A stretch of DNA of 62,397 nt from Patescibacteria group bacterium (GCA_040384365.1 JAZKJK010000015.1:1093-63489), one strand, 5' to 3'. Shown: positions 4,493 to 23,832, numbered from the stretch's first letter. Made by a program: numbers and translations. The notes: generated by a model from the letters alone, not told the origin.

Positions 4493-5389
4493 ATGCAGAA
4501 TGAATTATACATAGCTATATTGGCTGGACTTGGTGGAATGCTAGGTTGGGGTTTTGCTGATTTCTTTGCAAAGAAAACAATAGACGAAGTTGGAGATATA
4601 ATTAGTCTTGCATGGGCACATATTTTTGGAACTTTGATCCTTTTAATTTTTATTTTACAGCAAGTAATTTTTAATGGTCGTCAGGTTTCACTTCCTAATG
4701 ATTTAAGCACTTGGAGTATGTTGATATTTTTTGGTGTATTACAGGGAGCAGTTTACTTTTTTGTATACAAAGGATTCAGTAAAGGTCAAGTGTCAGTTTT
4801 AAGTCCAGTTTTTGCTTCATTCTCAGGAATAACTTCTATATTATCAATAGTGGTATTTGGTGAAATTATAAGTGGACATTTAATTCTTGCTTTGATTACT
4901 ATATTCAGTGGAGTTTTGTTAATAAATATCGATATAAAAACTTTTGTTTCAAAACGTATTATTTTTACCAAAGTCGCCGGATTAAAAGAAATAGCAATAG
5001 CTACAATACTTGCATCTTTGTGGACACTATTTTGGGGCAAATTTGTTAGTGGTCAAGATTGGCTATTATACGCATTGTTTATGTATGGATTCATGACTCT
5101 TGCCATTTTGCTATTGGTGAAATATCAAAAAATAAATTTATTGATCGGCAAATCGAATCTATGGAAATTTTTTATTTTTATCGGTCTGTGTGAGATAATT
5201 GCATATCTGGCCATAAGTTTTGGATATAGTGCCACATCACACATAAGCATAATTGCATTACTAAGTGGAGCATTTTCTTTGCCAGTGATAATACTGGCTC
5301 GTATTTTTCTAAAAGAAAAAGTTGGATTGGCACAAACCATAGGAAGTGTTATAATCATTCTCGGTACTGTATTTTTATCCCTGTTTTAA
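4493..5389 (+). CDS. EamA/DMT-family transporter (10 TM)
   Basis: Two repeated 5-TM halves are present, and the hydrophobic pattern is typical of EamA. Confidence 0.75.
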   Translation: MQNELYIAILAGLGGMLGWGFADFFAKKTIDEVGDIISLAWAHIFGTLILLIFILQQVIFNGRQVSLPNDLSTWSMLIFFGVLQGAVYFFVYKGFSKGQVSVLSPVFASFSGITSILSIVVFGEIISGHLILALITIFSGVLLINIDIKTFVSKRIIFTKVAGLKEIAIATILASLWTLFWGKFVSGQDWLLYALFMYGFMTLAILLLVKYQKINLLIGKSNLWKFFIFIGLCEIIAYLAISFGYSATSHISIIALLSGAFSLPVIILARIFLKEKVGLAQTIGSVIIILGTVFLSLF

Positions 5390-5401
5390 TTTACTTCAAT
5401 C

Positions 5402-6550
5402 ATGAAAGATTCCTTCAGCACAATTTTTGATAATAGTTCTTTAGAGAAACTGTCGCTTGCACACGAAACACCTTTTTTCCTTTTCTCGAAACAAAAAATA
5501 ATAGATAAGTTGCATAAGTTTAAAAAATGTTTTCCAGGATCGATAATTCATTATGCAATGAAAGCTAATTCCGAACCAGAGGTTTTAAAAATTCTTTTTG
5601 ATACAGGAAGCTCGTTTGAAGTTGCTTCAAAATATGAACTTGATTTACTAAAAGCCATAAAGATTCCGCCAGATAAAATAGTTTACGGTACTTCCGTTAA
5701 ACCCGCTTCCCATATAAAAGAATTCTATAATTATGGTGTAGATAGATTTGCCTTCGACTCCTTTTCGGAGCTTGAAAAAATATCTGCAAATGCTCCGGGT
5801 TCACGTGTATATGTAAGGACAATCGCTAATGATTCAGGCAGTGTATTTAAATTCTCCGAGAAATTTGGTATTGAAAAGGAAAACATCATCCCACTACTCA
5901 AGCGAGCAGTTGAACTTGGTCTCAAGCCATATGGGATAAGTTTTCATGTGGGTTCTCAGGCCAGCAACTTGAAAGCTTGGGGCAATGCCCTCGAACTTCT
6001 TCGTCCAATTGTTGAAAAGTTAAAGAAAGAGGACATAAATATAGAGGTTATAAATATAGGTGGGGGATTTCCTTGCAATAGTTATGCCTCAAGTGGGCAA
6101 ATTTTTTCCTTAGAAGAAATAGCTGAATTTACTCTAAAGCAATATAAAAAATTTCCTCCACACTTAAAGTTAATGCTAGAACCTGGGAGGGGGATTATAG
6201 CTGATACCTCAGTCTTAATTACAAGCGTAATAGCCAAGATTGAAAGAAAAGAACGTACATGGATTTTTTTAGATGCTGGGGTTTACAATGCTCTCTTTGA
6301 AGCTATGGCATATCAAGGTTCCACTCGTTACAAAATAAACAGTCTTAGATTAAGCAATGATTCTGGCGAAGCGATGTTTTCTCTTGCAGGACCAACTGGT
6401 GACAGTCCAGATATAATAGCTAGAGAAGTTTTATTACCAAAAGATGTTGAAATTGGGGATAAGCTTTTAATTCACGATGTGGGAGCTTATACCCTTACGG
6501 CATCTAGTAGATTTAATGGTTTCCCCAAACCACCTGTGTATTTTGTTTGA
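5402..6550 (+). CDS. type III PLP-dependent decarboxylase (ornithine/lysine/diaminopimelate decarboxylase family)
   Basis: The motifs HYAMKAN (PLP lysine), HVGSQ, GGGFP and EPGR appear in canonical order. Confidence 0.8.
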   Translation: MKDSFSTIFDNSSLEKLSLAHETPFFLFSKQKIIDKLHKFKKCFPGSIIHYAMKANSEPEVLKILFDTGSSFEVASKYELDLLKAIKIPPDKIVYGTSVKPASHIKEFYNYGVDRFAFDSFSELEKISANAPGSRVYVRTIANDSGSVFKFSEKFGIEKENIIPLLKRAVELGLKPYGISFHVGSQASNLKAWGNALELLRPIVEKLKKEDINIEVINIGGGFPCNSYASSGQIFSLEEIAEFTLKQYKKFPPHLKLMLEPGRGIIADTSVLITSVIAKIERKERTWIFLDAGVYNALFEAMAYQGSTRYKINSLRLSNDSGEAMFSLAGPTGDSPDIIAREVLLPKDVEIGDKLLIHDVGAYTLTASSRFNGFPKPPVYFV

Positions 6551-6581
6551 CACCAGAGTTTTAAAAAATTATAATATAAGT

Positions 6582-7388
6582 ATGCAATTAAATATCTATC
6601 AGAAAGTGTGCCTATATTTTTTTATTGCTCTGGTTATCTTTTGGGCAATTTTGTTTTCTTTGGGTTTGAAAGAAGGATTCTATAATTATTTCTTCTCGTT
6701 TTTATTTGGACTGATCCCCCTCATTGCAGGACTTATCGCCATGTTTCGTGCTCACTTTTGGGGTGGACTTAAAAGTGCAGTCGGTAAAGCAGTATTCTTT
6801 ATTGGTTTTGGTATATTTTTATGGGGATGTGGTGAGGCAATTTGGTCTTACTATAACTTTTTCATGAATATTCCGGCACCCTACCCATCAATTGCTGATC
6901 TGGGATTTGCCCCTAGTATTTTCTTTTATGGATTGGGCACTTTTTATCTTTCGAAAGCTACAGGTGCAAAATTTGGGCTGAGAAATAAATTTGCTAAATT
7001 TTTTGTGACGATAGCACCTTTGTTTATCCTTGCTCTTTCTTACTATCTTTTGATAAACGTTGCTCGGGGCGGCGTTTTAATTCCAGAAGGTGAGACACCC
7101 CTTAAAATTTTACTTGACATAGTCTATCCATTAGGAGATTTTATTGCTCTGACCTTGGGTGTAATAATATCAGGACTTTCTTTCCAATACCTTGGTGGTA
7201 AATACAAATCAGACATTTATGCAATATTATTAGGTCTTGGTGTTATGTTTATAGCTGACACTATCTTTTCCTATACAACAACTGTTGGGACTTATTATAA
7301 CGCTGATTTCGGTGATCTAGTACTTGCTCTTGGTACCTTCCTAATTTCTTTTGGAATCCTTGGTTTTTATAAATTGAAAGTAGATTAA
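6582..7388 (+). CDS. polytopic membrane protein (about 7-8 TM), possible sensor module
   Basis: The track ORF starts at 6477 inside the upstream gene. The first non-overlapping ATG is at 6582 (MQLNIYQKV). The protein is hydrophobic throughout. Confidence 0.6.
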   Translation: MQLNIYQKVCLYFFIALVIFWAILFSLGLKEGFYNYFFSFLFGLIPLIAGLIAMFRAHFWGGLKSAVGKAVFFIGFGIFLWGCGEAIWSYYNFFMNIPAPYPSIADLGFAPSIFFYGLGTFYLSKATGAKFGLRNKFAKFFVTIAPLFILALSYYLLINVARGGVLIPEGETPLKILLDIVYPLGDFIALTLGVIISGLSFQYLGGKYKSDIYAILLGLGVMFIADTIFSYTTTVGTYYNADFGDLVLALGTFLISFGILGFYKLKVD

Positions 7389-7395
7389 AATATTT

Positions 7396-7674
7396 ATGGA
7401 TCCAATCTTACAAATTCCAATAAGAATTATAAAAGAGCAAGAACTTGTTATTGGACCTTTGGCTTGGGATGAAGCCCAAAAAGTTACCGGACTTAATATT
7501 GATCAATCACACAATTCTGTTTCTTTTACTGGTGATGCAAAAGATATAATAAATAGGTTGGTGGCTCAGTATGAAAGAATTTTCGGAAAAGCTTCCCACG
7601 CTGTGTGTCATGATGCTGTAAAAGATTTAATAACTGGAATGTCTCCCGCAGAAGTTCCGTCTAGTCTAAAATAA
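7396..7674 (+). CDS. small cytoplasmic protein of unknown function
   Basis: This 92-aa ORF lies 7 nt after the membrane protein and 9 nt before the kinase gene. Confidence 0.5.
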   Translation: MDPILQIPIRIIKEQELVIGPLAWDEAQKVTGLNIDQSHNSVSFTGDAKDIINRLVAQYERIFGKASHAVCHDAVKDLITGMSPAEVPSSLK

Positions 7675-7683
7675 TGATCAGTT

Positions 7684-8505
7684 ATGGCAAATAACGATGA
7701 CAAAAATCCTATTTCTCCAGAGGAATATAAGAACATAACAGAAAAAATGTATAAGCAGAATCTCGAGCTGGCGAGATTGTACAAAGAAGTTGATAGTTTA
7801 AATAAAAGCCGAGAAAGCTTGGTGCATTTGATCAATCATAAAGTAAAAGGCGCTTTTACCCATTCAAAATATATTTTTGCAGGAATTTTGGATGGAACCT
7901 TTGGTGACACAAATGAGGAAATAAGAAAAAGAGCAACTCAGGGACTAGAGTCAGACGATATGGGGATCAAGACCATTGATCTGTTTTTAAATACTGATAA
8001 TTTAAAAAAGGGAACCATAAAATATGACATGAAGGATACTGATTTTAAAGATCTAATTTTGCAAACTTTAGCGGGGAAAAAAGTACAGGCAGAAGCAAGG
8101 GGCCTCCAGATGGAAAGTATTATAGATGATGGCGCCTACCATGTATCGGGTGATGTATTCTGGCTACGAGAAGCTGTGAATAATCTGATAGATAATTCTA
8201 TTAAATACACAAAGGAGGGCAAGATAACTGTCGACCTCAAAGATGGTAATGGTCAAGTAAAATTATCCGTTAAAGATACTGGCATAGGTATCGCTGACGA
8301 GGACAGGAAAACTATGTTTACCGAGGGTGGGCGGGGTCAAAACTCAGTCAAAATAAATGTGGATAGTACAGGCTATGGTCTCTATACGGTAAAATTGGTC
8401 ATAGAGGCTCATGGTGGTAAAGTTTGGGTAGAATCAGAAGGTGAGGGTAAAGGTTCTACTTTCTATATTGAATTGTCATCTATCTCAGAAAACAAGCTTT
8501 CATAA
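7684..8505 (+). CDS. soluble histidine kinase (HisKA_2-like H box plus HATPase_c)
   Basis: The H box is INHKVKGAF (compare HRVKN), the N box is NLIDNSIKYT, G1 is DTGIGI and G2 is GYGLYTV. There is no TM segment or sensor domain. Confidence 0.75.
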   Translation: MANNDDKNPISPEEYKNITEKMYKQNLELARLYKEVDSLNKSRESLVHLINHKVKGAFTHSKYIFAGILDGTFGDTNEEIRKRATQGLESDDMGIKTIDLFLNTDNLKKGTIKYDMKDTDFKDLILQTLAGKKVQAEARGLQMESIIDDGAYHVSGDVFWLREAVNNLIDNSIKYTKEGKITVDLKDGNGQVKLSVKDTGIGIADEDRKTMFTEGGRGQNSVKINVDSTGYGLYTVKLVIEAHGGKVWVESEGEGKGSTFYIELSSISENKLS

Positions 8506-8534
8506 AAAATGATTGTATAGTATTGTTATTCTTA

Positions 8535-11500
8535 ATGGAGGAGAATCAAGAGAAAAATAAACCCGCCTCTGCACAAGGCTCCGGCGAGGCGAAGAAGTCA
8601 GACGCAGCGCTTCGCGAAGAAGCTGTTTTGGAGTTTTGGAAAGAGAATAAAATATTTGAAAAGTCTTTGACCAAAAAGGCGCCAAAGGGCAATTATGTTT
8701 TTTATGATGGCCCTCCTTTTGCCACTGGGCTGATGCATTATGGGCATATTTTGGGCAGTACTGCTAAAGATGTGGTAGGACGGTATCAGACAATGAAAGG
8801 TTTTCATGTTCCTAGAAAATGGGGTTGGGATTGTCATGGTCTACCTATTGAGAATATCGTTGAGAAAGATTTAAATATTGCTGGGCACAAAGAGATAGAA
8901 AAATTTGGCATAGATAAATTTGTAGAACATGCGCGCAGTAAGGTTTTGCAATATGACAAAGAATGGGAAAAGAGCGTCGAACGCATCGGGCGTTGGGTGG
9001 ATTTTAAAGGCGGATACAAAACAATGGATAATACTTTCATTGAATCTGCCTGGTGGGCTTTTAGTCAGTTGAATAAAAAAGGTCTAATCTATGAAGGAGT
9101 CAGAGTTTTGGCCTATTGCGCGAGGTGTGAAACTCCGATTGCTAATTCTGAAATAGCGATGGACAACAGTTATAAAGATATTGCGGATATTTCTATTTAT
9201 GTAAAATTCGAACTAGAAGACGAACCCAGAACATATCTACTGGCTTGGACGACGACGCCTTGGACCTTGCCGGGTAACACTGCGATTGCGATAAATAAAA
9301 ATATTGTCTATGTAAAAGTGAAAATAGGGGATGACGTTTTAATACTTGCAAAGGAAACTTTGAACAATGTTATAAAAAATAAAGAATATTCTATGCTGGG
9401 TGAAGTAAGAGGGGCTGATTTGATCGGTAAAAAATACAAGCCAGTTTTTCCTTATTATCAAAATACTGATATGCCGAATAGAGAAAATATTTGGAAAATT
9501 TGGCACGCGGATTTTGTAACTACAGAAAAAGGTACAGGTATTGCCCATGAAGCCCCAGCCTTTGGTGAAGAAGATGCCGATTTGGCAAAGGCGAATAGTA
9601 TTCCTTGGATTATTCACGTAGACGAGACAGGCAGATTTAAAGCCGAAGTGGTGGACTTTGCTGGTTTGAAAGTAAAACCCAAAGATACACTGGAAGACAA
9701 AGATGCGCACTTGCGGAGTGATATTGAAGTCATAAAATATCTTCAAAAAACCGGAGCGTATTTCGATAAAGAAAAAATAATCCATTCATACCCGCATTGC
9801 ATGCGTTGTGAGACGCCGATTATCTATTATGCGTTACCGTCTTGGTTTATTAATATTCAAAAAGTTAAAAAGCAAATCATAAAAAAAGCAGATGCGATGA
9901 ACTGGGTTCCCGCTCATTTAAAAGAAGGCAGGTTTAAAAATATAGTCGAGAATGCACCTGATTGGAATGTATCTCGAAATCGTTATTGGGCTTCACCCTT
10001 GCCGGTTTGGAAGTGTGAAAAGTGCGCAGAGAAGATTTTTATCGGCTCAATGAGTGAATTGAAAGAAAAAACCAAAAAATCTGGTAATAAATACTTTGTG
10101 ATGCGACACGGGGAGTCAGAAAGCAACATCAAACATGGCTCGCATGGGGTCATCTCCTCTCGCGAAGAGAATGTCGATCATCTGACTGAAGTTGGTCGGG
10201 GACAAGTAGAAAAAACTGCGAAAGAATTAAAAAATAAAAAGATTGATCTAGTTTTTGCTTCACCACTTATGCGGACTCGGGAAACACTCGCGATTCTGAA
10301 AGAAAAATTGGGCCTCACCGAAGAGCAGATCGTCTTTGATAAAAGATTGCAGGAAATACAAGGAGGTTCTTTTGAGGGTAAGCCGTGGGACGCATACTTG
10401 CGAACCTTGCTGGATCCAAAAGAAAGATTTCTAAAGTCTCATGAGGGGGTAGAGTCTTTGCTGGAGGTGAAAAAGAGAGTCGGGAATGTGATCTACGAAT
10501 TAGAAGAAAAATATTCTGAGAAGAATATTCTAATAATCTCGCATGGGGGACCACTCTGGATGTTCTATTCTGTATTGCATGGGTACAACGTCGATGAGTC
10601 TATCGCCATGACTGGCGGACTTTTTAGGCATTCGGAAGAAATTGAAAAAGGGGTTTCGGGAAGTTTTCGCTTTTTTAAAAATGCAGAATGTCGCGCTTTT
10701 GATTTTATTTCTATTCCTCATAATGAAAAATATGAACTAGACTATCATAGACCATATATAGACAGCATAAAACTCGTCTGTGATTGTTCCGCTATGATGA
10801 ACAGAGTACCAGAAGTTTTAGATTGTTGGTTTGAATCTGGCTCCATGCCTTTTGCTCAAGATCACTATCCATTTAAAAATCCGAAGTGGCAGAAAAATAA
10901 CTTTCCGGCTGGGTTTGTGGCTGAATATATTGCCCAGACGAGAACTTGGTTTTACTATACCCATGTCCTTTCCACTATTCTCTTTAATCATGCGCCATTT
11001 GAAAATGTGGTGACTACCGGCACACTCCTGGCGGAAGATGGTCAAAAAATATCAAAATCTAAAAAAAATTATCCAGACCCTTGGATATTTATAGATAAGT
11101 ATGGGGTCGACGCATTGCGTATTTATCTCATGACGAGTCCTCTAATGAAAGGGGAGGATGCAAATTTTTCAGAAAAGTCTGTGCAAGAAATCTCAAGTAA
11201 GATTATCGGCAGACTGGGAAATGTATTTTCCTTTTATGAACTTTATCGGGATCACTCACTTGAAGCTATAACTGACAACCCAAAACCTAATACTGTTTTG
11301 GATCAGTGGATTCTTGCACGCTTGAATCAATTTGTTGGGGAAGTTACGAATGGCATGGAAGCATACGATATGAATGAAGCCTCTCGTCCGATTGAAAACT
11401 TTATAGAGGATCTGTCCGTTTGGTATTTGCGTCGTTCACGAGATAGAATCAAGAATGGAGATAAGGAAGCCAAGCAAACTTTGTATTTTGTTTTGAAAAC

Positions 11501-12107
11501 TTTGGCAAAAACCATGGCTCCCTTCGCGCCATTTACAGCTGAAGATATATGGTTGAAATTGAAAAATGAAGATAGTGCGGAAAGTGTGCATTTAGAAAAT
11601 TGGCCAAAAGCTGAAAATATAAATAGTAAAATTATTGAAGAGATGGACATGGTTCGCAAAGTCGTGACTCTCGGGCTAGAAGCTAGGCAAAAGGCAGGCA
11701 TAAAAGTTCGTCAGCCCCTCGCTAAATTAGAAGTTAAAGATTTAAATTTCGGCAGAGAATATGTCGAGCTCATAAAAGATGAGTTGAATGTGAAAGTAGT
11801 TGTAAAAAACATAAATCTAGAAACTGAAGTCGCTCTCGATACAACAATTATAGAAGAACTAAAACAAGAAGGGGATTATCGTGAACTCGTGCGTGCCATT
11901 CAGGATATGCGCAAAAATATGGGGCTGACGCCTAGTGATGTAATCTCACTTTGTGTTGAGACGAGCGGAGAAGGTAAAAAATTAGTCCGAAAATTTGAAA
12001 ATGATATGAAAAAAACTGTCTTGGCGTCTAAAGTCGAGTTCCAAAACAACGATGGGCAAGAAGTAAAAGTTGATACCTTGGTTTTCAAGGTAAAAATTGA
12101 GAAATAG
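8535..12107 (+). CDS. ileS: isoleucyl-tRNA synthetase carrying an internal histidine-phosphatase domain insertion
   Basis: The class I and IleRS landmarks are present: HYGH, the editing motifs TTTPWTLPGNTA and GTGIAHEAPAFG, WFESGSMPF, and KISKS. The track start at 8523 is TTG; the first ATG is at 8535. The insert at about 10089-10733 carries RHGES, SPLMRTRET and SHGG. Confidence 0.95.
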   Translation: MEENQEKNKPASAQGSGEAKKSDAALREEAVLEFWKENKIFEKSLTKKAPKGNYVFYDGPPFATGLMHYGHILGSTAKDVVGRYQTMKGFHVPRKWGWDCHGLPIENIVEKDLNIAGHKEIEKFGIDKFVEHARSKVLQYDKEWEKSVERIGRWVDFKGGYKTMDNTFIESAWWAFSQLNKKGLIYEGVRVLAYCARCETPIANSEIAMDNSYKDIADISIYVKFELEDEPRTYLLAWTTTPWTLPGNTAIAINKNIVYVKVKIGDDVLILAKETLNNVIKNKEYSMLGEVRGADLIGKKYKPVFPYYQNTDMPNRENIWKIWHADFVTTEKGTGIAHEAPAFGEEDADLAKANSIPWIIHVDETGRFKAEVVDFAGLKVKPKDTLEDKDAHLRSDIEVIKYLQKTGAYFDKEKIIHSYPHCMRCETPIIYYALPSWFINIQKVKKQIIKKADAMNWVPAHLKEGRFKNIVENAPDWNVSRNRYWASPLPVWKCEKCAEKIFIGSMSELKEKTKKSGNKYFVMRHGESESNIKHGSHGVISSREENVDHLTEVGRGQVEKTAKELKNKKIDLVFASPLMRTRETLAILKEKLGLTEEQIVFDKRLQEIQGGSFEGKPWDAYLRTLLDPKERFLKSHEGVESLLEVKKRVGNVIYELEEKYSEKNILIISHGGPLWMFYSVLHGYNVDESIAMTGGLFRHSEEIEKGVSGSFRFFKNAECRAFDFISIPHNEKYELDYHRPYIDSIKLVCDCSAMMNRVPEVLDCWFESGSMPFAQDHYPFKNPKWQKNNFPAGFVAEYIAQTRTWFYYTHVLSTILFNHAPFENVVTTGTLLAEDGQKISKSKKNYPDPWIFIDKYGVDALRIYLMTSPLMKGEDANFSEKSVQEISSKIIGRLGNVFSFYELYRDHSLEAITDNPKPNTVLDQWILARLNQFVGEVTNGMEAYDMNEASRPIENFIEDLSVWYLRRSRDRIKNGDKEAKQTLYFVLKTLAKTMAPFAPFTAEDIWLKLKNEDSAESVHLENWPKAENINSKIIEEMDMVRKVVTLGLEARQKAGIKVRQPLAKLEVKDLNFGREYVELIKDELNVKVVVKNINLETEVALDTTIIEELKQEGDYRELVRAIQDMRKNMGLTPSDVISLCVETSGEGKKLVRKFENDMKKTVLASKVEFQNNDGQEVKVDTLVFKVKIEK

Positions 12108-12111
12108 AAAT

Positions 12112-12717
12112 ATGAAGTTAATTATTTTTGATTTTGATGGGGTCTTGGTGGATACGCTCATCATGACCTATGAGATAACCAAAGAAATAAATCCGGAAAT
12201 GTCCCTTGAGGATTTTCGTTTACTTAACAATGGGAACTTTCTTCACTCAATAGAAAATAGCCTTACGATTAAAAATCATCCTGAATTTTTTGAGCGGTAC
12301 AAAGAAGAATCCAGAGAACTCAAGATACCTCCATCATTAAAAGATTTAATTTATAAATTAAGCAAAGAGTGCACACTCGCGATTGTTTCTTCTTCTCTGT
12401 CATCTTTGATCAAAGACATTCTAGATCGGGAAGATGCTATGCCATATTTTATGGATATATTGGGTAGTGATTTACACAAGAGCAAGGTCTTCAAAAATAA
12501 AATGCTTTTGGAGAAGTATAAAGTTGATCCCAAAGATGCAGTTTTCATCACAGATACTGTGGGTGATATACTTGAAGCACGCGAATGCGGAATAAAATCT
12601 ATCGCTGTGACTTGGGGTTTCCAAGATGCAGAGTCTTTACAAAAAGCCAAACCGGCCAAAATAGTCAGTATGCCAGAAGACTTGATGCAAGCGATAACAG
12701 AACTTACCAATGCGTAA
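12112..12717 (+). CDS. HAD-superfamily phosphatase (phosphoglycolate phosphatase-like)
   Basis: Motif I is IIFDFDGVLVDT. The gene starts at the ATG at 12112, 5 nt after the ileS stop. Confidence 0.8.
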   Translation: MKLIIFDFDGVLVDTLIMTYEITKEINPEMSLEDFRLLNNGNFLHSIENSLTIKNHPEFFERYKEESRELKIPPSLKDLIYKLSKECTLAIVSSSLSSLIKDILDREDAMPYFMDILGSDLHKSKVFKNKMLLEKYKVDPKDAVFITDTVGDILEARECGIKSIAVTWGFQDAESLQKAKPAKIVSMPEDLMQAITELTNA

Positions 12718-13357
12718 AAAAATTTCAGATATTTATACTGAATATAAAATAATGCCAAGTTTGCAGGATCATATGCTCCGTGTGGCAGCGGTAGCATCTT
12801 TAATCTGCGACAACTTTGACGAGCCTCTTCCAAAAGAAGAAATAATCAGTGCATGTTTGTTACACGATATGGGGAATATTATCAAGTCAGACCTTAAATA
12901 TTTTCCAGAATTTTTAGAGCCACAAGGTTTGGACTATTGGCAGGAGGTCAAAGATGAATATATACAAAAATACGGCAAAAATGAACTGCAAGCGACCGTG
13001 CAAATTATTCAGGAACTGGGCCTGAGCAATCTGCTTCCTGTTTTTGGTGGTATGAGCTTTGCCAAAGCTAAAGAAAATCTTGCAGTCGAGGATTTTGCCA
13101 TCAAAATCTGTTTTTATGCCGATCTACGGGTTGATCCGCACGGAGTTGTTTCATACGAGGGGCGGATGGAAGAAGGGAAAAAGAGATATCAAAACAGGAC
13201 GGACGTTTTTTCTACTGAAGGGCGAGATTATTTAGTCCAATGCGGTAAAGAAATCGAAAAACAAATCTTCGCAAAATGCAAAATAAAGCCGGAAGATATA
13301 AATAATGAAACCGCAGCCCCAATAATTTTAAGCTTGAGGGGCTTTGTGATAAAATAA
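12710..13357 (+). CDS. HD-domain phosphohydrolase
   Basis: An H...LLHDMGN signature is present. The gene overlaps the HAD gene by 8 nt. Confidence 0.7.
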   Translation: MRKKISDIYTEYKIMPSLQDHMLRVAAVASLICDNFDEPLPKEEIISACLLHDMGNIIKSDLKYFPEFLEPQGLDYWQEVKDEYIQKYGKNELQATVQIIQELGLSNLLPVFGGMSFAKAKENLAVEDFAIKICFYADLRVDPHGVVSYEGRMEEGKKRYQNRTDVFSTEGRDYLVQCGKEIEKQIFAKCKIKPEDINNETAAPIILSLRGFVIK

Positions 13358-13361
13358 AAAG

Positions 13362-13877
13362 ATGGATAAAAAATTTACTTATGGAAATAAGTATGTGTGT
13401 AATCTTGAAAAAAAGACAATATTCTTACCGGTTGAATTAGAAAATCTTCCAGACAAGCTGATCATCGGGGAGTTTACTTTATTTAAAAGATCTGAGTTTC
13501 ATGTTAGTCTTGTTTGTGTTGGAAAAATAATAGAGAAGTACAAAATTTCTATTCCAGATTTTTGGAATAAAGTCGTCGATGATTTTTACGAATTTACTAG
13601 AACAAAAAAAATTGAAATTATAGGTTATAAAGATGAATTTAAATTTGTAGTAAGAGAAAATAAAAAAACAGTTGTAGTTATGTGTGAAATGTCGAATCTG
13701 AATGAATTTTTTGATTTTATAAATCATAAATATACTCTGAACATTGATTACCCGCCAGCTCACATCACTCTCTATACTCTCGATGGAGAATCCGGTATAT
13801 TTCTGATCAGTATCGATGATATAAAAAATTTTACAAAGCCTATTACAAATCCGATAGGTTTTATATTGCAATCTTAA
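13362..13877 (+). CDS. 2H phosphoesterase-superfamily protein (LigT/cyclic phosphodiesterase-like)
   Basis: Two HxS/Tx motifs (EFHVSLVC and AHITLYT) lie about 87 aa apart in a 171-aa protein, which matches the 2H-fold layout. Confidence 0.5.
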   Translation: MDKKFTYGNKYVCNLEKKTIFLPVELENLPDKLIIGEFTLFKRSEFHVSLVCVGKIIEKYKISIPDFWNKVVDDFYEFTRTKKIEIIGYKDEFKFVVRENKKTVVVMCEMSNLNEFFDFINHKYTLNIDYPPAHITLYTLDGESGIFLISIDDIKNFTKPITNPIGFILQS

Positions 13878-14458
13878 TGCACCACATCTATCACACAGAA
13901 GGAATAATTTTAGGGAGTAGAAGTCACGGCGAAGCGGGGAAGTATTATTATATTTTCACTCGGGATTTGGGGATGATCACGGCAACGGCTCAAGGGGTAC
14001 GCAAGATGTCTTCCAAGCTCCGCTATGTCTTGCAAGATTTCTCATATCTCAAGATTGACCTCGTGCAGGGCAAGAATATCTTTCGGGTGACGAGCGCCTC
14101 AAAAACAAATATTCTGGAAGACATTACTAAAAATTTGGAAAATTTTAAAGTTTTTGCAAATATTGCGCGCTTGCTGAGGCGACTACTCGCTGGTGTCGAG
14201 CCAAATGAAGCCCTATTTGCAGACTTATTAAATGGCTTATTGATTGTGGAAAAAGCAGAGACGAAGGAGGATTTAAGGAACTTGGAAATAATTATTGTCC
14301 TGCGGATACTGAACAATCTCGGATATATTGGCGATAATGAAATATTGCAAAATCTTACCAAATCTCCATTTGAGGAGAATCTAGTCTTTGAAGTTTTAAA
14401 AGATAGGACTAAAGTCTTAAACCAGATAAACAAAGCTCTCAAAGAGACACATTTGTAA
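13877..14458 (+). CDS. recO: DNA repair protein RecO (short form)
   Basis: The N-terminal OB-fold pattern TEGIILGSRSHGEAGKYYYIFTRDLGMITATAQGVRK is present. The start overlaps the upstream stop. Confidence 0.7.
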   Translation: MHHIYHTEGIILGSRSHGEAGKYYYIFTRDLGMITATAQGVRKMSSKLRYVLQDFSYLKIDLVQGKNIFRVTSASKTNILEDITKNLENFKVFANIARLLRRLLAGVEPNEALFADLLNGLLIVEKAETKEDLRNLEIIIVLRILNNLGYIGDNEILQNLTKSPFEENLVFEVLKDRTKVLNQINKALKETHL

Positions 14459-14503
14459 AAAACGCTTCTTCTAATTTTCTCTTCGAGATGGTACAATTCT
14501 ACA

Positions 14504-16453
14504 ATGGCGATAAATGATGGAGATAAATTAAACAGAATAGAAGAGTTAAAAAGCAAGCTCTTTAGTAAGAGCTATAGGACAAAGATAGAACACCGAGACA
14601 GTTTTACACACTTTGATAAAAATAAAGTGCCAGAGGCGTGGGGAAATGATGGAAAATCAGCGACCGACTATCTTTCATATCAAGAAAAATTTTTTATGAA
14701 AACATCTCTTTTTAAGAATTTCTTTTTATTTTCGTTAATTTTTCTTGTGCTGACGCTTTGTTATGCTGCCTATGTTTTTTTTGCTGGAGGCAATACGGTT
14801 TCTAATGAAAATATCGATATTTCAGTATTGGGGAATAATTTTACGGCTGGCGGAGAAGAGCTCTCGTTCGTCGTGGGAATCACAAATAAAAATAATTCTT
14901 CACTTGATTTAGTAAATTTAGTCATAGAATATCCCAAAAACTCGGGAGTCGGCACCACCACTTCTACTTCGGGCACACAAAGGACGCGACAGTCTCTAGG
15001 TACTATTCCCGCCGGGGCAGTGCGTAACGAAAATATAAAAGTGGTATTGTTTGGTGAGCAAGGCAGTCTGCAGAATATCAAGATCACGCTCGAGTATCGC
15101 GTCGAAGGGTCAAATGCCATCTTTGTCAAAGACAAATCCTACGATGTGACCATTAGCTCGACTCCTCTCAATTTGTCTATCGATGCTCCTTCTGTAACCA
15201 GCTCGAACCAAGCCCTAACTCTAAAAATAAAAGCCACACTAAACGCTACCAAGCCAGTTTCTAAAATACTTCTCAAGGTGGATTATCCACTCGGATTTCA
15301 ATTTGAATCAGCTGTGCCAGCTCCAACCCAAGGCAATAATGTCTGGAATATGGGGGATTTAGCTCCCGGCGCAGAGCGCACCATATCAGTGACCGGGAAA
15401 ATACTCGATGCCGTGGATGGAGAAGAAAAAACTTTTCGTATCTCGAGTGGTTCCCAGTCCAGCACTGACAAATCCATGATAGATGTTGTTTTTAATTCTC
15501 TGCCATACACGGTGATGATACAGAAGCCTTTTGTGGAGGCGCAAATTTTTATAAATGGTGTATCCGAAAGGCAATATGCTACCGATGCCAAGACTGCCAT
15601 CAATGGGCAGATCAGATGGACCAATAATTTAGATACGAATGTCAATGATTTAATAATTCAGGCGAAAATATCTGGGAACGCGGTGAATAGGAAGACCATC
15701 AATGCGCAACAGGGCTTCTATGATTCTTCAAAAGACGTCATAACTTGGGATAAAACTTCAGTGAATGATTTTGCGCGAATAAGCCCGGGTGATTCTGGAT
15801 CGGTAAATTTTTCTGTTTCGCCACTTTCCATATTCTCAGCGGCGGACGGGTTATTGCCTAGTCCTTCTGTGACCATAGATATTTCTATATCCGGCAAACA
15901 ATCTGTCTCTGGTTATACCACACAAGATTTGCATAATTCTGATTCAGCCATAATTCGAATCATTTCCGATGTTGGACTTACGGCCAAAGCTCTTCGTTAC
16001 TCCGGACCCTTTTCTAATACTGGCCCCATACCTCCAAAAGTCGAACAAAAAACAACTTATACAGTACAATGGTCTCTCTCTAATACAGCCAACAATATAT
16101 CCAAAGCAGTTATTAACTCCAGTCTGCCATCTTGGGTGAGTTTTGTGGGTCCAATTTCGCCGGCGGAGGTAGACCTCATTTACAATCCCGCCACTAGAAG
16201 CATCGTCTGGAATATAGGCAGTATTCCAAAGGGGACTGGCATTACCACAGCAGGCAAGAGCGTCTCTTTCCAAGTTGCATTTACTCCGTCACTTTCTCAA
16301 GTCGGCACTACTCCGATTATTATAAATGACGCAGTTTTGACTGGGCATGACGATTTTGCTAATGTAGACGTGAGGGTGAGTAAGACTTCGCTCCGCACCC
16401 AGCTCGACAGCGATCCGTCGTTTCCTTCTGGCGGAGGTCAGGTAGTGGAATAA
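14504..16453 (+). CDS. membrane-anchored extracytoplasmic beta-rich protein (CARDB/DUF11-like repeats)
   Basis: There is a single TM segment near residue 75, followed by about 560 aa rich in Ser, Thr, Asn and Val with beta-type periodicity. Confidence 0.55.
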   Translation: MAINDGDKLNRIEELKSKLFSKSYRTKIEHRDSFTHFDKNKVPEAWGNDGKSATDYLSYQEKFFMKTSLFKNFFLFSLIFLVLTLCYAAYVFFAGGNTVSNENIDISVLGNNFTAGGEELSFVVGITNKNNSSLDLVNLVIEYPKNSGVGTTTSTSGTQRTRQSLGTIPAGAVRNENIKVVLFGEQGSLQNIKITLEYRVEGSNAIFVKDKSYDVTISSTPLNLSIDAPSVTSSNQALTLKIKATLNATKPVSKILLKVDYPLGFQFESAVPAPTQGNNVWNMGDLAPGAERTISVTGKILDAVDGEEKTFRISSGSQSSTDKSMIDVVFNSLPYTVMIQKPFVEAQIFINGVSERQYATDAKTAINGQIRWTNNLDTNVNDLIIQAKISGNAVNRKTINAQQGFYDSSKDVITWDKTSVNDFARISPGDSGSVNFSVSPLSIFSAADGLLPSPSVTIDISISGKQSVSGYTTQDLHNSDSAIIRIISDVGLTAKALRYSGPFSNTGPIPPKVEQKTTYTVQWSLSNTANNISKAVINSSLPSWVSFVGPISPAEVDLIYNPATRSIVWNIGSIPKGTGITTAGKSVSFQVAFTPSLSQVGTTPIIINDAVLTGHDDFANVDVRVSKTSLRTQLDSDPSFPSGGGQVVE

Positions 16454-16490
16454 GTTATAAAGTTCATAAAGTAGAAAGTTATAAAGCAAA

Positions 16491-17819
16491 ATGAAAAAAG
16501 AAAACAAAGAGAATGAATTGATGGAAAAGATAGTCTCGCTATGCAAAAGGCGAGGGTTTGTTTTTCAGGGTTCAGAAATATATGGGGGACTGGGCGGAAC
16601 TTGGGACTTCGGACATTATGGAGTTGCCTTAAAAAATAATATTACCCAGTCTTGGTGGAATAAATTTGTGGATTCTAGGCGGGATATGTATGGCATAGAC
16701 GCAGCTATTCTCATGCGTCAAGAAGTCTGGCAAGCCTCTGGCCACGTGGCCGGGTTTGCTGATCCGATGGTGGAATGTGAAAAATGTAAAAAAAGATTTC
16801 GCCCCGATCAAATTGAAGATGCAAAAAAGTGTCCGGAATGCGGAGGCAAGCTTGGCCAGCCGAGACAATTCAATATGATGTTTCAAACAAAAGTCGGCGC
16901 TTCGGAAGATTCTTCGGCTATTTCATATCTGCGCCCTGAAACAGCCCAAGGAATGTTTGTAAATTTCAAAAATACCGTGGACGCTTTTCATCCCAAACTT
17001 CCTTTTGGAATGGCCCAAATCGGTAAGGCCTTCAGGAATGAGATAACTCCGCGTGATTTTCTTTTTCGTGTGCGCGAATTTGAGCAGATGGAGATAGAAT
17101 ATTTTATTCGTGGCGGAGATTGGGAAAAATATTTCGAATACTGGAAAGATGAGATGCTCGCTTGGATGCAAGAAGTTGGCCTCGATATGAATAAAGTTCA
17201 TGAGCTCGAAGTGCCAAAAGAAGACAGAGCGCATTATTCTAGCCGGACGATTGATTTTGAATTTGATTTTCCATTTGGCAAGAAAGAACTTTTTGGTCTT
17301 GCTTATCGTACGGATTTTGATCTCAAGAATCATAAGCTTGAATATATAGACGAGGAGAACAAAGAAAAAATAGTGCCACATGTCATTGAGCCGACCTTTG
17401 GAGTCGGTCGAGCCTTGCTTGCTCTATTAGTTTCAGCCTATCGTGAAGACCCCGAAGCAAAGAGTACTTCCGACGGGGCAAGTGAAAAAAGAGTCTACCT
17501 AAAGTTTAAAGCAAGTATTGCGCCGGTTATCTGCGCTGTTTCGCCACTCTTAAAAAATAAACCAGAACTTGTGGAATATGCTAATGCCAAAGTTTTTGTA
17601 CCACTTAAGGCGGAGTTTGGTCGGGTGGCTTGGGACGACAATGGCAACATCGGCAAGCGTTATCGCAGGCAAGACGAAATCGGCACGCCATTTTGTATCG
17701 TAGTTGATTTTGATACGCTCACAGATAATACCGTGACTGTCCGCGATCGTGATACAGGCGAGCAGGAGAGGGTATCAGTTGCCGATTTACAAAAATACAT
17801 AAAAGGAAAGATAAACTAA
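16491..17819 (+). CDS. glyQS: glycyl-tRNA synthetase (homodimeric alpha2 type)
   Basis: The sequences RRGFVFQGSEIYGGLGGTWDFGHYG and RPETAQGMF, plus class II motifs, are characteristic of GlyQS. Confidence 0.95.
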   Translation: MKKENKENELMEKIVSLCKRRGFVFQGSEIYGGLGGTWDFGHYGVALKNNITQSWWNKFVDSRRDMYGIDAAILMRQEVWQASGHVAGFADPMVECEKCKKRFRPDQIEDAKKCPECGGKLGQPRQFNMMFQTKVGASEDSSAISYLRPETAQGMFVNFKNTVDAFHPKLPFGMAQIGKAFRNEITPRDFLFRVREFEQMEIEYFIRGGDWEKYFEYWKDEMLAWMQEVGLDMNKVHELEVPKEDRAHYSSRTIDFEFDFPFGKKELFGLAYRTDFDLKNHKLEYIDEENKEKIVPHVIEPTFGVGRALLALLVSAYREDPEAKSTSDGASEKRVYLKFKASIAPVICAVSPLLKNKPELVEYANAKVFVPLKAEFGRVAWDDNGNIGKRYRRQDEIGTPFCIVVDFDTLTDNTVTVRDRDTGEQERVSVADLQKYIKGKIN

Positions 17820-17865
17820 AAATACTTAGAACTCTGCTATCGCAGAAAATCTAGTAAAAGTACTT

Positions 17866-19134
17866 ATGAAATTCTCAAAAAAAGTTTTAAAGAATGGACT
17901 ACGAGTAATCACGGTGCCGATGAAAGACAACCCGACGGTGACGGTCTTGGCACTAGTGGAAACTGGTTCTAAATATGAGAGAAAGGAGGTGAATGGGATT
18001 TCGCACTTTTTAGAGCATATGTGCTTCAAGGGCACTTCAAAAAGGCCAAAAGCCGTTGATATTTCAAAGGAATTAGACGCTCTCGGTAGTCAGTATAATG
18101 CTTTCACTGCCCAAGAATATACAGGATATTATGCCAAATCTGATGCTCGGCATTTCAAGCAGATTTTTGATATTGTGTCGGATATTTATTTAAATTCAAC
18201 CTTTCCCGATGCCGAAATGCAAAAAGAAAAAGGGGTGATTATTGAAGAAATAAATATGTACGAAGACATGCCTCATAGGCACGTGCAGGACTTGATGATG
18301 AAGCTACTTTATGGAGATCAGCCAGCTGGCTGGAACATCGCGGGTGAAAAGAAAAATATTTTAAATATGAAACGAGAAGATTTCATTGATTATCACCAGA
18401 AGCAGTATCTGCCAGAAGCGACTGTGCTAATAGTCGCGGGGCAGGTGACAGAGAAAGAAGTGATGAGTGAAGTAAAAAAGATTTTTGGTCAAGTTTCGCG
18501 TGGCAAGAAGGGTAGTAAACTAAAAGTAAAAGAAAAACAGGAAAAACCGCAAGCCCTGATTAATTTTAAGCAGACAGATCAGACGCATTTTGTCTTGAGT
18601 GTGCGTACTCACGATATATTTAGCAAGAAAAGCACGATTCTTTCTGTGCTCAGTGGCGTGCTCGGCGGGGGAATGAGTTCGAGGCTCTTTGTGAAGCTTC
18701 GGGAAGAGATGGGTGTGGGTTATTATGTGCGTGCCTACAACGATGCTTATACGGATCACGGATTTTTGCAAATTTCTGCTGGAGTGGATAACAAAAGAAT
18801 CGACGAAGTTATTTATGCAATTTTAGAAGAATGCCGGAAATTAAAAAACTTCAAAGTGACCGAAGAAGAATTAAATAAAGTCAAAGAATGTTTGATCGGC
18901 AACATGAAGTTATCTCTAGAATCGAGTGATGACATAGCCAACTTTTTTGGCGGACAAGAACTCTTGAAACGCGAAATCCGTGGAGCAGAAGAAAAGGCCA
19001 AAGATATACGCAAAGTCACAGCCGCTCAAATTCAAGCCCTAGCTAAAGATATTTTTGTAAATAAAAAGCTCAATCTGGCGCTCATCGGACCTTTCAAAGA
19101 AAAAGCTAAGTTTTTTAAGATACTGAAATTCTAG
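17866..19134 (+). CDS. M16-family zinc peptidase (insulinase-like)
   Basis: The inverted zinc motif HFLEHMCFKGT (HxxEH) is present. The length is typical of this family. Confidence 0.85.
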   Translation: MKFSKKVLKNGLRVITVPMKDNPTVTVLALVETGSKYERKEVNGISHFLEHMCFKGTSKRPKAVDISKELDALGSQYNAFTAQEYTGYYAKSDARHFKQIFDIVSDIYLNSTFPDAEMQKEKGVIIEEINMYEDMPHRHVQDLMMKLLYGDQPAGWNIAGEKKNILNMKREDFIDYHQKQYLPEATVLIVAGQVTEKEVMSEVKKIFGQVSRGKKGSKLKVKEKQEKPQALINFKQTDQTHFVLSVRTHDIFSKKSTILSVLSGVLGGGMSSRLFVKLREEMGVGYYVRAYNDAYTDHGFLQISAGVDNKRIDEVIYAILEECRKLKNFKVTEEELNKVKECLIGNMKLSLESSDDIANFFGGQELLKREIRGAEEKAKDIRKVTAAQIQALAKDIFVNKKLNLALIGPFKEKAKFFKILKF

Positions 19135-19233
19135 TTGTGTTTATTTTAGTTTGCAACATTGACATTGATATCTAAATAGATGTACCATTCAACCGAACAG
19201 TAGCAGCAAACCTAAACCTTGGAAGGATAGAAC

Positions 19234-19746
19234 ATGAAAAAAAGAATAGAAAGGTCGATGGTAGGGATAATTTTCCTCATCAACGGCCCAAATCTCAACC
19301 TTCTCGGCAAGCGGGATCCTGAAAAATATGGGACAGCGACCCTGGAGCAGATCACTCGTCAAGTGGCAAAGAAAGCCAGAAAACATGGTTTCGTCGTCAA
19401 GGCATTCCAGTCGAATCATTCTGGTGCATTGATTGATTTCATTCAGACACTTGGTCTTTCAGAAGCGACAGTGCTTATGAGGGGGATTGTGTTGAACGCC
19501 GGTGGACTCACTCACACGGATGTTTCCTTGCGAGACGCAGTGGACTTTGCGTCTTCAAAGGGTGTACCGACCGTTGAGGTGCATCTTTCCAATATTCATA
19601 AACGCGAAACGTTTCGGCAGGTTTCGCTTTTAACCGGAGTCTCCATTGACCAGGTCTGTGGACTTGGGGCGAGGAGTTACACAGAGGGACTCGAGAAGCT
19701 TATAACGCATTTGAAGGAAATGCGTCGTAAGTCGAAAAAGAAATAG
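19234..19746 (+). CDS. aroQ: type II 3-dehydroquinate dehydratase
   Basis: The motifs INGPNLNLLGKRDPEKYG, NAGGLTHTDVSLRDA and HLSNIHKRETFRQVS are present. An alternative start at 19258 is possible. Confidence 0.9.
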   Translation: MKKRIERSMVGIIFLINGPNLNLLGKRDPEKYGTATLEQITRQVAKKARKHGFVVKAFQSNHSGALIDFIQTLGLSEATVLMRGIVLNAGGLTHTDVSLRDAVDFASSKGVPTVEVHLSNIHKRETFRQVSLLTGVSIDQVCGLGARSYTEGLEKLITHLKEMRRKSKKK

Positions 19747-19757
19747 GCCACATCTAA

Positions 19758-19809
19758 GGGCCGGAGGAAGGGCTGATGCTTTTCATCCGGCCCTTTCTCT
19801 TTGTTTTTT
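19758..19809 (+). terminator. rho-independent terminator after aroQ
   Basis: The arm gggccgga pairs with tccggccc and is followed by tttctctttgtttttt. Confidence 0.6.
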
Positions 19810-19840
19810 ATTTTTCGTATTTTTGTGCTATCATATTTCT

Positions 19841-20914
19841 ATGATTGAAAAGAGTAACATTACTCATATTTCTATAACTACTGGCACCATCGTTCGAGTC
19901 ATATTGATTGCTTTGGGTCTATTTTTGTTGTGGTTTTTGCGAGATTTGGGTCTAGTAGTTTTGACTTCCATTGTTATTGCATCTTTTGTCGAATCAGCGA
20001 CCCCTTATTTTAGAAAAGTGAAGATGAATAGAGTGCTCGGGATTGTTCTCTTGTATGTCATCTCGCTCTTCACGCTCGCTGGCCTATTTTATCTTTTTGC
20101 GCCGCTACTCATAACTGAAATTTATAATTTCTCTACATTTATTTCAGCTTATGTGCCAAATATTTCTTTCTTGCAATATTTTCAAAATGAGGCCTTCTCT
20201 GGCGCCAAGGATATAGTCAGTACCCTCGGAAGTAATTTTTCCATTACCACTTTGTTTTCAGTTTCCAAAGCTTTTATTCTGAACCTCTCTGGAGGATTTT
20301 TCCAAATACTCTCGGTCACTTTCGGAAGCGTCTTTAATTTTATATTGATCATCCTTATTTCTTTCTATCTCTCGATGGAAGAGAGGGGCATAGAAAATTT
20401 TCTTCGACTTATTTTCCCAATTCAACACGAGGACTATGTGGTGGATCTCTGGGAACGCTCTCGCCGCAAAATTGCTCTATGGATGAAGGGGCAAGTCGTC
20501 CTGGGAGTGGTGGTCGGGGTTCTCATTTACCTAATACTCTCACTCCTCGGCATAGAGTATGCGCTGCTGCTCGCTCTGATTGCCGGAATAATGGAGCTGG
20601 TGCCTTATGGTATTTGGGTGGCTCTTATTCCAGCTTTTTCCTTCTCTTATCTTTCGGATGGAATTTCCAGCGCTTTGATGGTGGCTGGAGCTTACCTCAT
20701 CATTCACCAATTTGAAGTTTTCCTTTTTGCGCCACTGATTATAAAGAAAATAGTCGGCCTTTCACCGATTGTGATAATCCTATCTGTTTTGATAGGTTTT
20801 GAACTGGGTGGAATATGGGGAGGTGTGCTGGCTATCCCTCTCGCTGTGATAGTCATGGAATTCCTGAGCGATATTGAAAAGAACAAAACTTTAGCCAGAA
20901 CGCAGCATGGTTAA
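19841..20914 (+). CDS. AI-2E/UPF0118-family transporter (PerM-like)
   Basis: The 8-TM profile and C-terminal conserved region are typical of the family. The first ATG is at 19841; the track start at 19823 is TTG. Confidence 0.8.
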   Translation: MIEKSNITHISITTGTIVRVILIALGLFLLWFLRDLGLVVLTSIVIASFVESATPYFRKVKMNRVLGIVLLYVISLFTLAGLFYLFAPLLITEIYNFSTFISAYVPNISFLQYFQNEAFSGAKDIVSTLGSNFSITTLFSVSKAFILNLSGGFFQILSVTFGSVFNFILIILISFYLSMEERGIENFLRLIFPIQHEDYVVDLWERSRRKIALWMKGQVVLGVVVGVLIYLILSLLGIEYALLLALIAGIMELVPYGIWVALIPAFSFSYLSDGISSALMVAGAYLIIHQFEVFLFAPLIIKKIVGLSPIVIILSVLIGFELGGIWGGVLAIPLAVIVMEFLSDIEKNKTLARTQHG

Positions 20915-20928
20915 CTCGCTAATAAATA

Positions 20929-22377: not shown

Positions 22378-22390
22378 AAAAAATATTAAT

Positions 22391-23230: not shown

Positions 23231-23233
23231 ACT

Positions 23234-23291
23234 CCTCACCCCGCCTTCGGCACCCCTCTCCATCTCTAATGGAGAGGGGACGGGGGTGAGG
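23234..23291. repeat. nested-palindrome repeat, copy A (CCTCACCCC...CCCCTCTCCAT-loop-ATGGAGAGGGG...GGGGTGAGG)
   Basis: A perfect 11-bp inner stem pairs 23253-23263 with 23269-23279. A 9-bp outer stem pairs 23234-23242 with 23283-23291. Confidence 0.85.
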
Positions 23292-23327
23292 TTGTGTTTT
23301 TAAAAGTTTTTTGCTAATATTAAATTC

Positions 23328-23825: not shown

Positions 23826-23832
23826 TAAAATT

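Follow-up and report, generated by a model that had tools for sequence, protein, structure and literature searches.

Behind ileS, the isoleucyl-tRNA synthetase (IleRS) gene of a Patescibacteria group bacterium (GCA_040384365.1), small hydrolase genes stand in line before recO, and a further hydrolase is nested within the synthetase itself. The locus (8535..14458, + strand for all features given below) lies in JAZKJK010000015.1:1093-63489, a stretch of 62,397 nt that is called here, in its whole length, the window. It raises the question of whether four phosphoesterases gathered around one tRNA-charging enzyme form a single pathway, and on which substrates they would act. We read the block between ileS and recO as a mosaic of hydrolases of nucleotide phosphoesters, in which the nested histidine phosphatase and the HD protein are coupled to IleRS and the HAD and 2H proteins are optional. 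The source genome (687 kb, 94.8% complete) belongs to the Paceibacteria, and homologues of the window proteins carry the source labels Nomurabacteria, Paceibacterota or Patescibacteria.

Phosphohydrolases nested in and attached to the isoleucyl-tRNA synthetase

The ileS gene (8535..12107) encodes a protein of 1190 amino acids that scored 850.9 bits with TIGR00392 (cut-off 621.4) and contains the Pfam domains tRNA-synt_1, Anticodon_1 and DUF5915. Its frame starts with ATG at 8535, or with an alternative upstream TTG at 8523 that would give 1194 amino acids, and ends with TAG at 12105-12107. Nested in-frame is a His_Phos_1 domain (10089..10712, approximately residues 519-726), with PF00300 matching residues 525-692, inside tRNA-synt_1, at E 3e-31 and 108.9 bits (cut-off 21.7). 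The boundaries of the insert, set by alignment with an insert-less IleS of a relative (locus L003), fall between a CxxC pair and a CxC pair. The catalytic positions (RHG, R, E and H) are retained in at least 90% of 106 IleS sequences and, together with the match to the hidden Markov model (HMM), place the domain in branch 1 of the histidine phosphatase superfamily.

Searches for the insert region returned 917 proteins of IleS length, with PF00300 present in all 120 among the matches listed. In a sample of the class, an insert-like match was found in 241 of 301 genomes; among the 150 matches listed there, 132 are in open frames of at least 669 amino acids and 18 in frames of about 140-213 amino acids. 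Of twelve free-standing phosphatase copies examined, six immediately precede an ileS that lacks the insert, four more are located within 2.2 kb upstream and two elsewhere. The IleS-internal phosphatase reported by the first-pass annotation was confirmed, and its link to IleRS extends well beyond this genome, since the domain is nested in the synthetase or encoded next door (10 of the 12 free-standing copies) across the genomes sampled. The histidine phosphatase is a constant partner of IleRS in this class, either nested between two Cys pairs or encoded just upstream. In the literature searched we found no account of a histidine phosphatase nested in IleRS, or of an HD hydrolase attached to it, and NCBIfam has no model for this layout.

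Three further observations concern ileS and its phosphatase. A second, free-standing His_Phos_1 gene is present in the same genome (C3:29831-30418, open frame of 215 amino acids, 99 bits). One genome that has its phosphatase as a free-standing gene encodes, directly upstream of ileS, a different HD protein (HD_3/YfbR-like, E 2.5e-13; L044:7178-7804), a second, independent HD-ileS adjacency. In two relatives, ileS was read as two open reading frames (ORFs), of 389 and 760 amino acids in L027 (3335-6838) and of 813 and 368 in L133, which a frameshift, an assembly error or a genuine division of the gene could explain.

The HD gene of the window (12710..13357) encodes a protein of 215 amino acids. 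PF01966 matched it with E 9e-7 and 29.7 bits (cut-off 22), and the metal ligands H21, H52, D53 and D138, that is, the H, HD and D ligands of an HD phosphohydrolase, are invariant in 42 homologues. Such full conservation of the ligands suggests, at the sequence level, catalysis beyond mere tRNA binding. A scan against NCBIfam gave two weak rows (NTP transferase HD region and HDIG). The AlphaFold2 (AF2) model reached a predicted local distance difference test score (pLDDT) of 95.7, and every row listed by the structural search VIA was an HD-superfamily or HD-domain-containing entry. The VIA scores are flat, from Z 9.5 (the top match, 3i7a) to 6.7, and include the YqeK hydrolases of diadenosine tetraphosphate (Ap4A; 2o08, Z 9.2; 8wmy, Z 8.3), phosphodiesterases (PDEs; Z about 9), GppA (8.8), small alarmone hydrolases (7.9-7.4), the HD domain of the beta subunit of bacterial glycyl-tRNA synthetase (GlyRS; 8.5, 8.3 and 7.9) and tRNA nucleotidyltransferase (6.9).

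PF01966 was also found in 5 of the 120 listed insert-bearing IleS proteins, the C-terminal 215 residues of which are 53-61% identical to the window HD protein over its full length. A scan of metagenome contigs with the HD alignment was then used to keep the 80 loci closest to the window HD. IleS and HD are in one ORF in 23 of these loci, HD directly follows ileS in another 23, and one gene lies between them in 12; the remainder comprised 15 HD genes located elsewhere and 7 undecidable cases with HD at the contig start. The HD gene is thus fused to, adjoining or one gene from ileS in 58 of the 80 loci, or 58 of the 73 decidable ones, counts that overstate independence, as these loci are the closest kin of the query and share ancestry. 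On the HD tree, the fused state requires at least 13 changes, of which at least seven are forced by branches with an SH-like approximate likelihood ratio test (SH-aLRT) value of at least 95, and fusion or fission of IleS and HD therefore happened repeatedly. The fusions are end-to-end and retain the start methionine of HD. These results showed that the tie between HD and IleRS holds beyond this genome: an HD phosphohydrolase was captured behind ileS in one sub-clade and has repeatedly been joined to, or separated from, the C-terminal end of IleS. This HD family was detected in 4 of the 301 class genomes. A complex prediction for IleS residues 880-1190 and HD, made from alignments, scored 0.00, which gives no verdict and is evidence neither way.

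Optional genes between ileS and recO

The gene directly behind ileS (12112..12717) encodes a HAD-IA type phosphatase of 201 amino acids. It matched HAD_2 with E 4.6e-19 and 69.7 bits (cut-off 23.8) and TIGR01509 with 41.6 bits (cut-off 29.4), and an N-terminal DxD motif, here DFDG (DxDG) at residues 7-10, accompanies the HMM matches, as in HAD subfamily IA. The best NCBIfam family rows were phosphoglycolate phosphatase and PpaX, all far below their cut-offs. The HAD and HD calls of the earlier annotation, for which it had named the HAD_2 and PF01966 profiles as checks, were both borne out with scores over the cut-offs.

The 171-aa protein (13362..13877) had no match in Pfam or NCBIfam, and its family consists of 88 homologues of about 170 amino acids, all unnamed. 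None of 42 members reached the cut-off of any Pfam 2H family (LigT_PEase, 2_5_RNA_ligase2, CPDase, HVSL, 2H-SAK, Acb1), the best row with E up to 10 being a single one at E 0.21 for 2_5_RNA_ligase2. Single-sequence and profile searches of the PDB sequences likewise gave chance-level rows only (PH0099, E 0.28). The motifs H47-V-S49 and H134-I-T136 have the form HxS/HxT; H47, H134 and T136 are invariant and S49 is present in at least 90% of the 42 homologues. The AF2 model (pLDDT 92.9, predicted template modelling score 0.86) was compared with 48,161 PDB chains by VIA, where ranks 1-21 are all 2H enzymes with Z 7.0 to 4.2, among them mouse hepatitis virus (MHV) ns2 (7.0), Usb1 (6.4), the Pyrococcus 2'-5' ligase (6.2), ThpR (6.1) and Arabidopsis CPDase (4.2); the next and unrelated entry has Z 3.1. 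Foldseek matches were weak (best E 0.034, none at or below 0.001), nearly all of the better rows being 2H enzymes, and the structural neighbours in the ESM Atlas are 2'-5' RNA ligase-like, 2H-SAK, Acb1 and HVSL clusters. A pair of His-x-Ser/Thr motifs and a two-lobe alpha/beta fold, which define membership of the 2H superfamily in PMC5283653, were both found. As modelled, the 171-aa protein is a member of the 2H superfamily, in a sequence family missed by current profiles. The first-pass annotation had guessed this fold, and its guess stood in the fold and the motifs and failed in the expected score to the LigT_PEase or 2_5_RNA_ligase2 profiles; the four phosphoesterase folds that it had listed (His_Phos, HAD, HD and 2H) are all real.

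The distribution of the 2H gene is patchy. It was found in 5 of the 301 class genomes and in none of the three same-genus genomes of that sample, and the sets of genomes with 2H and with HD overlap only in the present one. Among 16 loci in species-representative genomes, five have the gene between ileS and recO (L002, L003, L006, L007, L011); in ten its setting is unrelated, and one match is marginal. At L003:5029-7974, a 981-aa IleS without the phosphatase insert is directly followed by the 2H gene, so that the nested phosphatase is not required for 2H placement there. Such patchiness would suit a role in conflict, in which the 2H protein, perhaps with HD, would degrade cyclic-oligonucleotide or 2'-5'-linked immune signals or reverse toxin modifications, as do Acb1, ns2 and VP3. 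The best structural matches do include MHV ns2, rotavirus VP3, Acb1, a phage phosphodiesterase and a poxvirus cGAMP PDE, and the Atlas neighbour clusters have phage members. The Z scores to cellular 2H enzymes are, however, tied with those to viral ones, and the gene sits inside a putative housekeeping operon. Searches with PADLOC returned one weak Cas3-HD row (E 0.006) and nothing for 2H, HAD, His_Phos or RecO, while PHROGs gave generic His_Phos and HAD rows only. No 2H homologue was found in 50,697 phage records or in IMG/VR, for which reason a phage origin of the gene was rejected as well. A conflict role is accordingly very improbable.

The recO region of 19 relatives was surveyed (8 same-order and 11 same-genus loci). 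In 18 of the 19, recO follows ileS directly or past a variable slot, and recO, a large DUF11-like protein and GlyRS have the same order in the relatives. The slot is empty, with recO directly after ileS, in five of the eight same-order genomes. In the 11 same-genus loci it holds one to four small genes in varying combinations: HAD (intact in L023, L025 and L028, a fragment in L018), HD (a separate gene in L028, an IleS fusion in L025), 2H (L024 only), a metallo-beta-lactamase (MBL)-fold hydrolase (six loci, and split into 67 and 157 amino acids in a seventh, L023), NUDIX (2), serine hydrolase (2), a PaaX_M/Cas2-like gene (4), and unknowns. Among the 80 HD loci, 2H is present in 7 and HAD in 10. 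The full string ileS-HAD-HD-2H was found in none of the 19 recO loci, in none of the 16 2H loci and in three of the 80 HD loci (L066, L125 and L126, with identical HD sequences in the last two). Conservation of this neighbourhood, on which the earlier hypothesis had been made to depend, was thus not observed; the slot between ileS and recO is variable, with HAD and 2H as optional occupants, and the run is a lineage-specific mosaic with no fixed four-enzyme pathway.

Two other slot families recurred in the survey. The PaaX_M/Cas2-like gene, of about 160-190 amino acids (L018:4911-5414, L020:4293-4769, L025:4377-4937, L027:6892-7365), was also found in 20 of the 80 loci L055-L134 and is absent here. 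An unnamed family of about 180-200 amino acids (L028:3587-4132, L022:5711-6265, L007:7390-7989), with matches in L071 and L078-L080, has three members that share a Cys-rich stretch in the hhalign output. Four slot unknowns (L028, 181 aa; L022, 184 aa; L030, 192 aa; L007, 199 aa) were considered as hidden 2H relatives and rejected, with hhalign probabilities of at most 0.3% each. The backbone argS-ileS(His_Phos)-recO-DUF11-glyS of Nomurabacteria/Paceibacteria was also found in L007, titled Burkholderiales, and in L003, L008, L010 and L015, titled Saccharibacteria, a mismatch between title and gene content that suggests mislabelled or mixed bins.

The genes from ileS to recO are closely packed. 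The HAD ATG at 12112 leaves a 4-nt gap after ileS; the HD ATG at 12710 precedes the HAD stop (12715-12717), an overlap of 8 nt; 4 nt separate the HD stop (13355-13357) from the next ATG at 13362; and the 171-aa gene and recO share TAATG, with a 1-nt overlap at 13877. On re-reading, the coordinates and junctions first reported proved exact. Because of the coupled junctions and because no terminator-like site was found on the + strand between ileS, HAD, HD, the 171-aa gene and recO, co-transcription of ileS to recO, which the first-pass annotation had called likely, is graded as plausible from the sequence. Gaps of at most 10 nt were found in 21 of the 49 same-strand neighbouring ORF pairs of the window, and the co-directional run extends over about 20 kb (approximately 4493 to 24288); since tight junctions are ordinary in this genome, the spacing permits co-transcription and does not single out these genes as a unit. 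Between 7300 and 16700, promoter-like sites (31, against a shuffle expectation of 25.1) and terminator-like sites (9, against 6.4) were near expectation. The whole window contained no Rfam family over its gathering score, no tRNA detected by ARAGORN and no T-box or leader. Downstream are recO in a short form of 193 amino acids (13877..14458; RecO_N of Pfam; TIGR00613, 65.6 bits against 48.7) and the conserved backbone of a 649-aa DUF11-like protein followed by GlyRS (14504..17819). The gene 29 nt upstream of ileS (7684-8505) encodes 273 amino acids with HATPase_c (residues 157-264) as the sole recognised domain; no HisKA or sensor domain was recognised.

Variable slot content, an empty slot in most of the same-order relatives and tight junctions as the rule would all be expected if small hydrolases with unrelated jobs simply accumulate in a permissive, well-expressed gap of compact genomes, nesting and fusion being tolerated accidents. 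End-to-end HD fusions that keep the start methionine are likewise what simple stop-codon loss would produce. An intact phosphatase inside or beside an essential enzyme in 241 of 301 genomes is, however, hard to see as neutral, IleS-HD fusion or fission recurs at least seven times, and HD stays with ileS in most of the decidable loci. We therefore consider it rather unlikely that the genes share no function.

Candidate substrates of the hydrolases

The neighbours of HD and 2H away from ileS bear on the choice of substrate. Eleven of the 15 HD genes located elsewhere branch outside the ileS-linked group (midpoint root, SH-aLRT 89). In the 10 of these 15 loci where neighbours were scanned, NDK is directly upstream of HD in three, the order NDK-CYTH-HD occurs in two, a cytidylate-kinase-like gene is upstream in one and a beta-CASP RNase J-like gene is downstream in two. 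Away from ileS, the neighbours of the 2H gene include NTPase_I-T (2 loci), a cytidine deaminase with HAD and SNase (1), a RecJ-like DHH protein (1) and APH-type kinases (2). A string of NDK (with or without CYTH), HD and the beta-CASP gene was seen outside the ileS clade at L113:2190-5775, L115:3322 onward and L094:3973-6866, and may be a small operon of nucleotide or RNA turnover.

These contexts, the YqeK Ap4A hydrolases among the best HD structural matches and the NUDIX genes in the same slot of two relatives support the reading that we favour over healing of tRNA ends, namely small-nucleotide hydrolysis coupled to IleRS, to which we assign a probability of roughly 0.4. The entries 2O08, 2OGI and 8WMY are given as YqeK Ap4A hydrolases in PMC11857287, and, according to PMC10148737, aminoacyl-tRNA synthetases are a main source of Ap4A and Nudix enzymes degrade it. 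In the mechanism, all substrate steps of which we infer, the enzymes would act on small phosphorylated nucleotides rather than on tRNA. Adenine-nucleotide side products of the synthetase, such as Ap4A-type dinucleotides and their breakdown products, would be removed by HD and the nested phosphatase. The 2H protein would open 2',3'-cyclic nucleotides and HAD would strip the resulting monoester phosphate, two steps that would serve nucleotide salvage or housecleaning, and all of the genes would be read with ileS and recO from one transcript.

Several points weigh against small-nucleotide hydrolysis. The HD fold cannot choose between nucleotide and tRNA substrates, because its Z scores are flat across PDEs, GppA, GlyRS beta and tRNA nucleotidyltransferase, and no YqeK model is among the NCBIfam sequence matches of the HD protein. 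The HD loci that tie the family to ileS share ancestry, as stated above. For 2H enzymes such as ThpR, LigT and Usb1, RNA ends are substrates along with nucleotides, and many of the genes beside 2H in its other settings (chaperonin, thioredoxin reductase, LemA, MarR) have no relation to nucleotides. Nesting within, or fusion to, IleS would equally suit an activity directed at tRNA.

The first-pass annotation had read the run in this last sense, as a set for the healing of tRNA or RNA 3' ends coupled to charging. In such a pathway, 2H would open a 2',3'-cyclic phosphate, HD, His_Phos or HAD would remove the phosphate, and the damaged or toxin-modified tRNA would be recharged by IleRS. Two phosphohydrolases are indeed built into, or fused to, a tRNA-binding enzyme, and the HD model matches the tRNA acceptor-end enzymes GlyRS beta and tRNA nucleotidyltransferase. 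The nearest structural relatives of 2H include the RNA-end enzymes Usb1, ThpR (4qak) and LigT, and Atlas neighbour clusters contain tRNA_lig_CPD and 2H-SAK domains in about 10% of their members. The CCA enzyme of this genome has an HD domain of its own, which provides a parallel and at the same time counts against a healing role for the window HD. Against such a set, both 2H and HAD occur sporadically, the distribution of 2H does not follow that of HD, and both HD and 2H adjoin nucleotide-metabolism genes when away from ileS. No RNA 5'-kinase or ligase gene was found in 8535-17819 by Pfam and NCBIfam scans, and no RtcB was detected in the genome (94.8% complete), where the search for ligases was confined to RtcB. 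A C-terminal fusion would put HD by the anticodon-binding end of IleS and not by the acceptor end, and nothing explains a need for such a service that is restricted to tRNA-Ile. The healing set thus found no specific support, and we regard it as doubtful.

A broader idea takes in both kinds of substrate. The IleRS of Paceibacteria could be the hub of an undescribed clean-up, in which the nested phosphatase and HD, with 2H and HAD as helpers in part of the species, would break down side products derived from adenylate or unblock phosphorylated tRNA 3' ends, at the very enzyme that produces or encounters them; we consider this unlikely. Replacement of a missing soluble pyrophosphatase by the hydrolases was also considered and was dropped as unsupported: PF00719 and DHHA2, searched for soluble inorganic pyrophosphatase, were unmatched in the genome, and a membrane H+-pyrophosphatase is present (C12:1646-3613, 903 bits).

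Aminoacyl-tRNA synthetases are among the best-studied enzymes, and the ultra-small, host-dependent bacteria of the candidate phyla radiation (CPR) must economise on nucleotides. If the two hydrolases coupled to IleRS work on what the synthetase makes or on its tRNA, they would constitute a new accessory activity of translation in CPR bacteria, and the clean-up hub, if true, would amount to quality control of a second kind, next to amino-acid editing. The 171-aa protein, as a predicted 2H member, would add to that superfamily a sequence family missed by current profile libraries. The idea of four enzymes healing tRNA rests on a gene string that is rare even in close relatives. New in this analysis are the assignment of the 171-aa gene to a putative unprofiled 2H family, the count and phylogeny of the HD-IleS fusions, the nucleotide kinases found beside HD outside the ileS clade and the rarity of the four-gene string.

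Comparison with known systems

The model of the 171-aa protein resembles the 2H enzymes E. coli ThpR/LigT (4qak), Pyrococcus 2'-5' RNA ligase (1vgj), Usb1 (5v1m) and MHV ns2 (4z5v), with Z of 7.0 to 6.1 over 124-134 residues. It differs from them in its low identity (9-16%), in having no sequence-model membership and in a short additional beta hairpin at the N-terminus (residues 1-15).

RNA healing-and-sealing systems (T4 Pnkp/Rnl, Pnkp-Hen1, RtcAB) contain a cyclic phosphodiesterase/phosphatase step and also need a 5'-kinase and a ligase, neither of which is encoded in this run. The window HD resembles YqeK (COG1713; 2o08, 2ogi, 8wmy), likewise a small stand-alone HD protein (about 190-215 amino acids) with H/HD/D metal ligands, to which the model aligned with Z 9.2 and 8.3. 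YqeK is usually encoded beside nadD, whereas the window HD family sits behind, or is fused to, ileS, and its Z scores to YqeK are tied with those to many other HD enzymes.

The CCA-adding enzymes and the beta subunit of bacterial GlyRS are earlier examples of tRNA enzymes with an HD domain; here, in contrast, the synthetase is of class I, and HD either has its own gene or is appended to the C-terminus. An IleRS with a second enzymatic domain is represented in NCBIfam by the exception model 'ileS_w_GNAT' (NF040702). In that case the additional domain is an acetyltransferase, whereas the IleRS described here has a histidine phosphatase embedded in its catalytic body and can be followed by an HD hydrolase.

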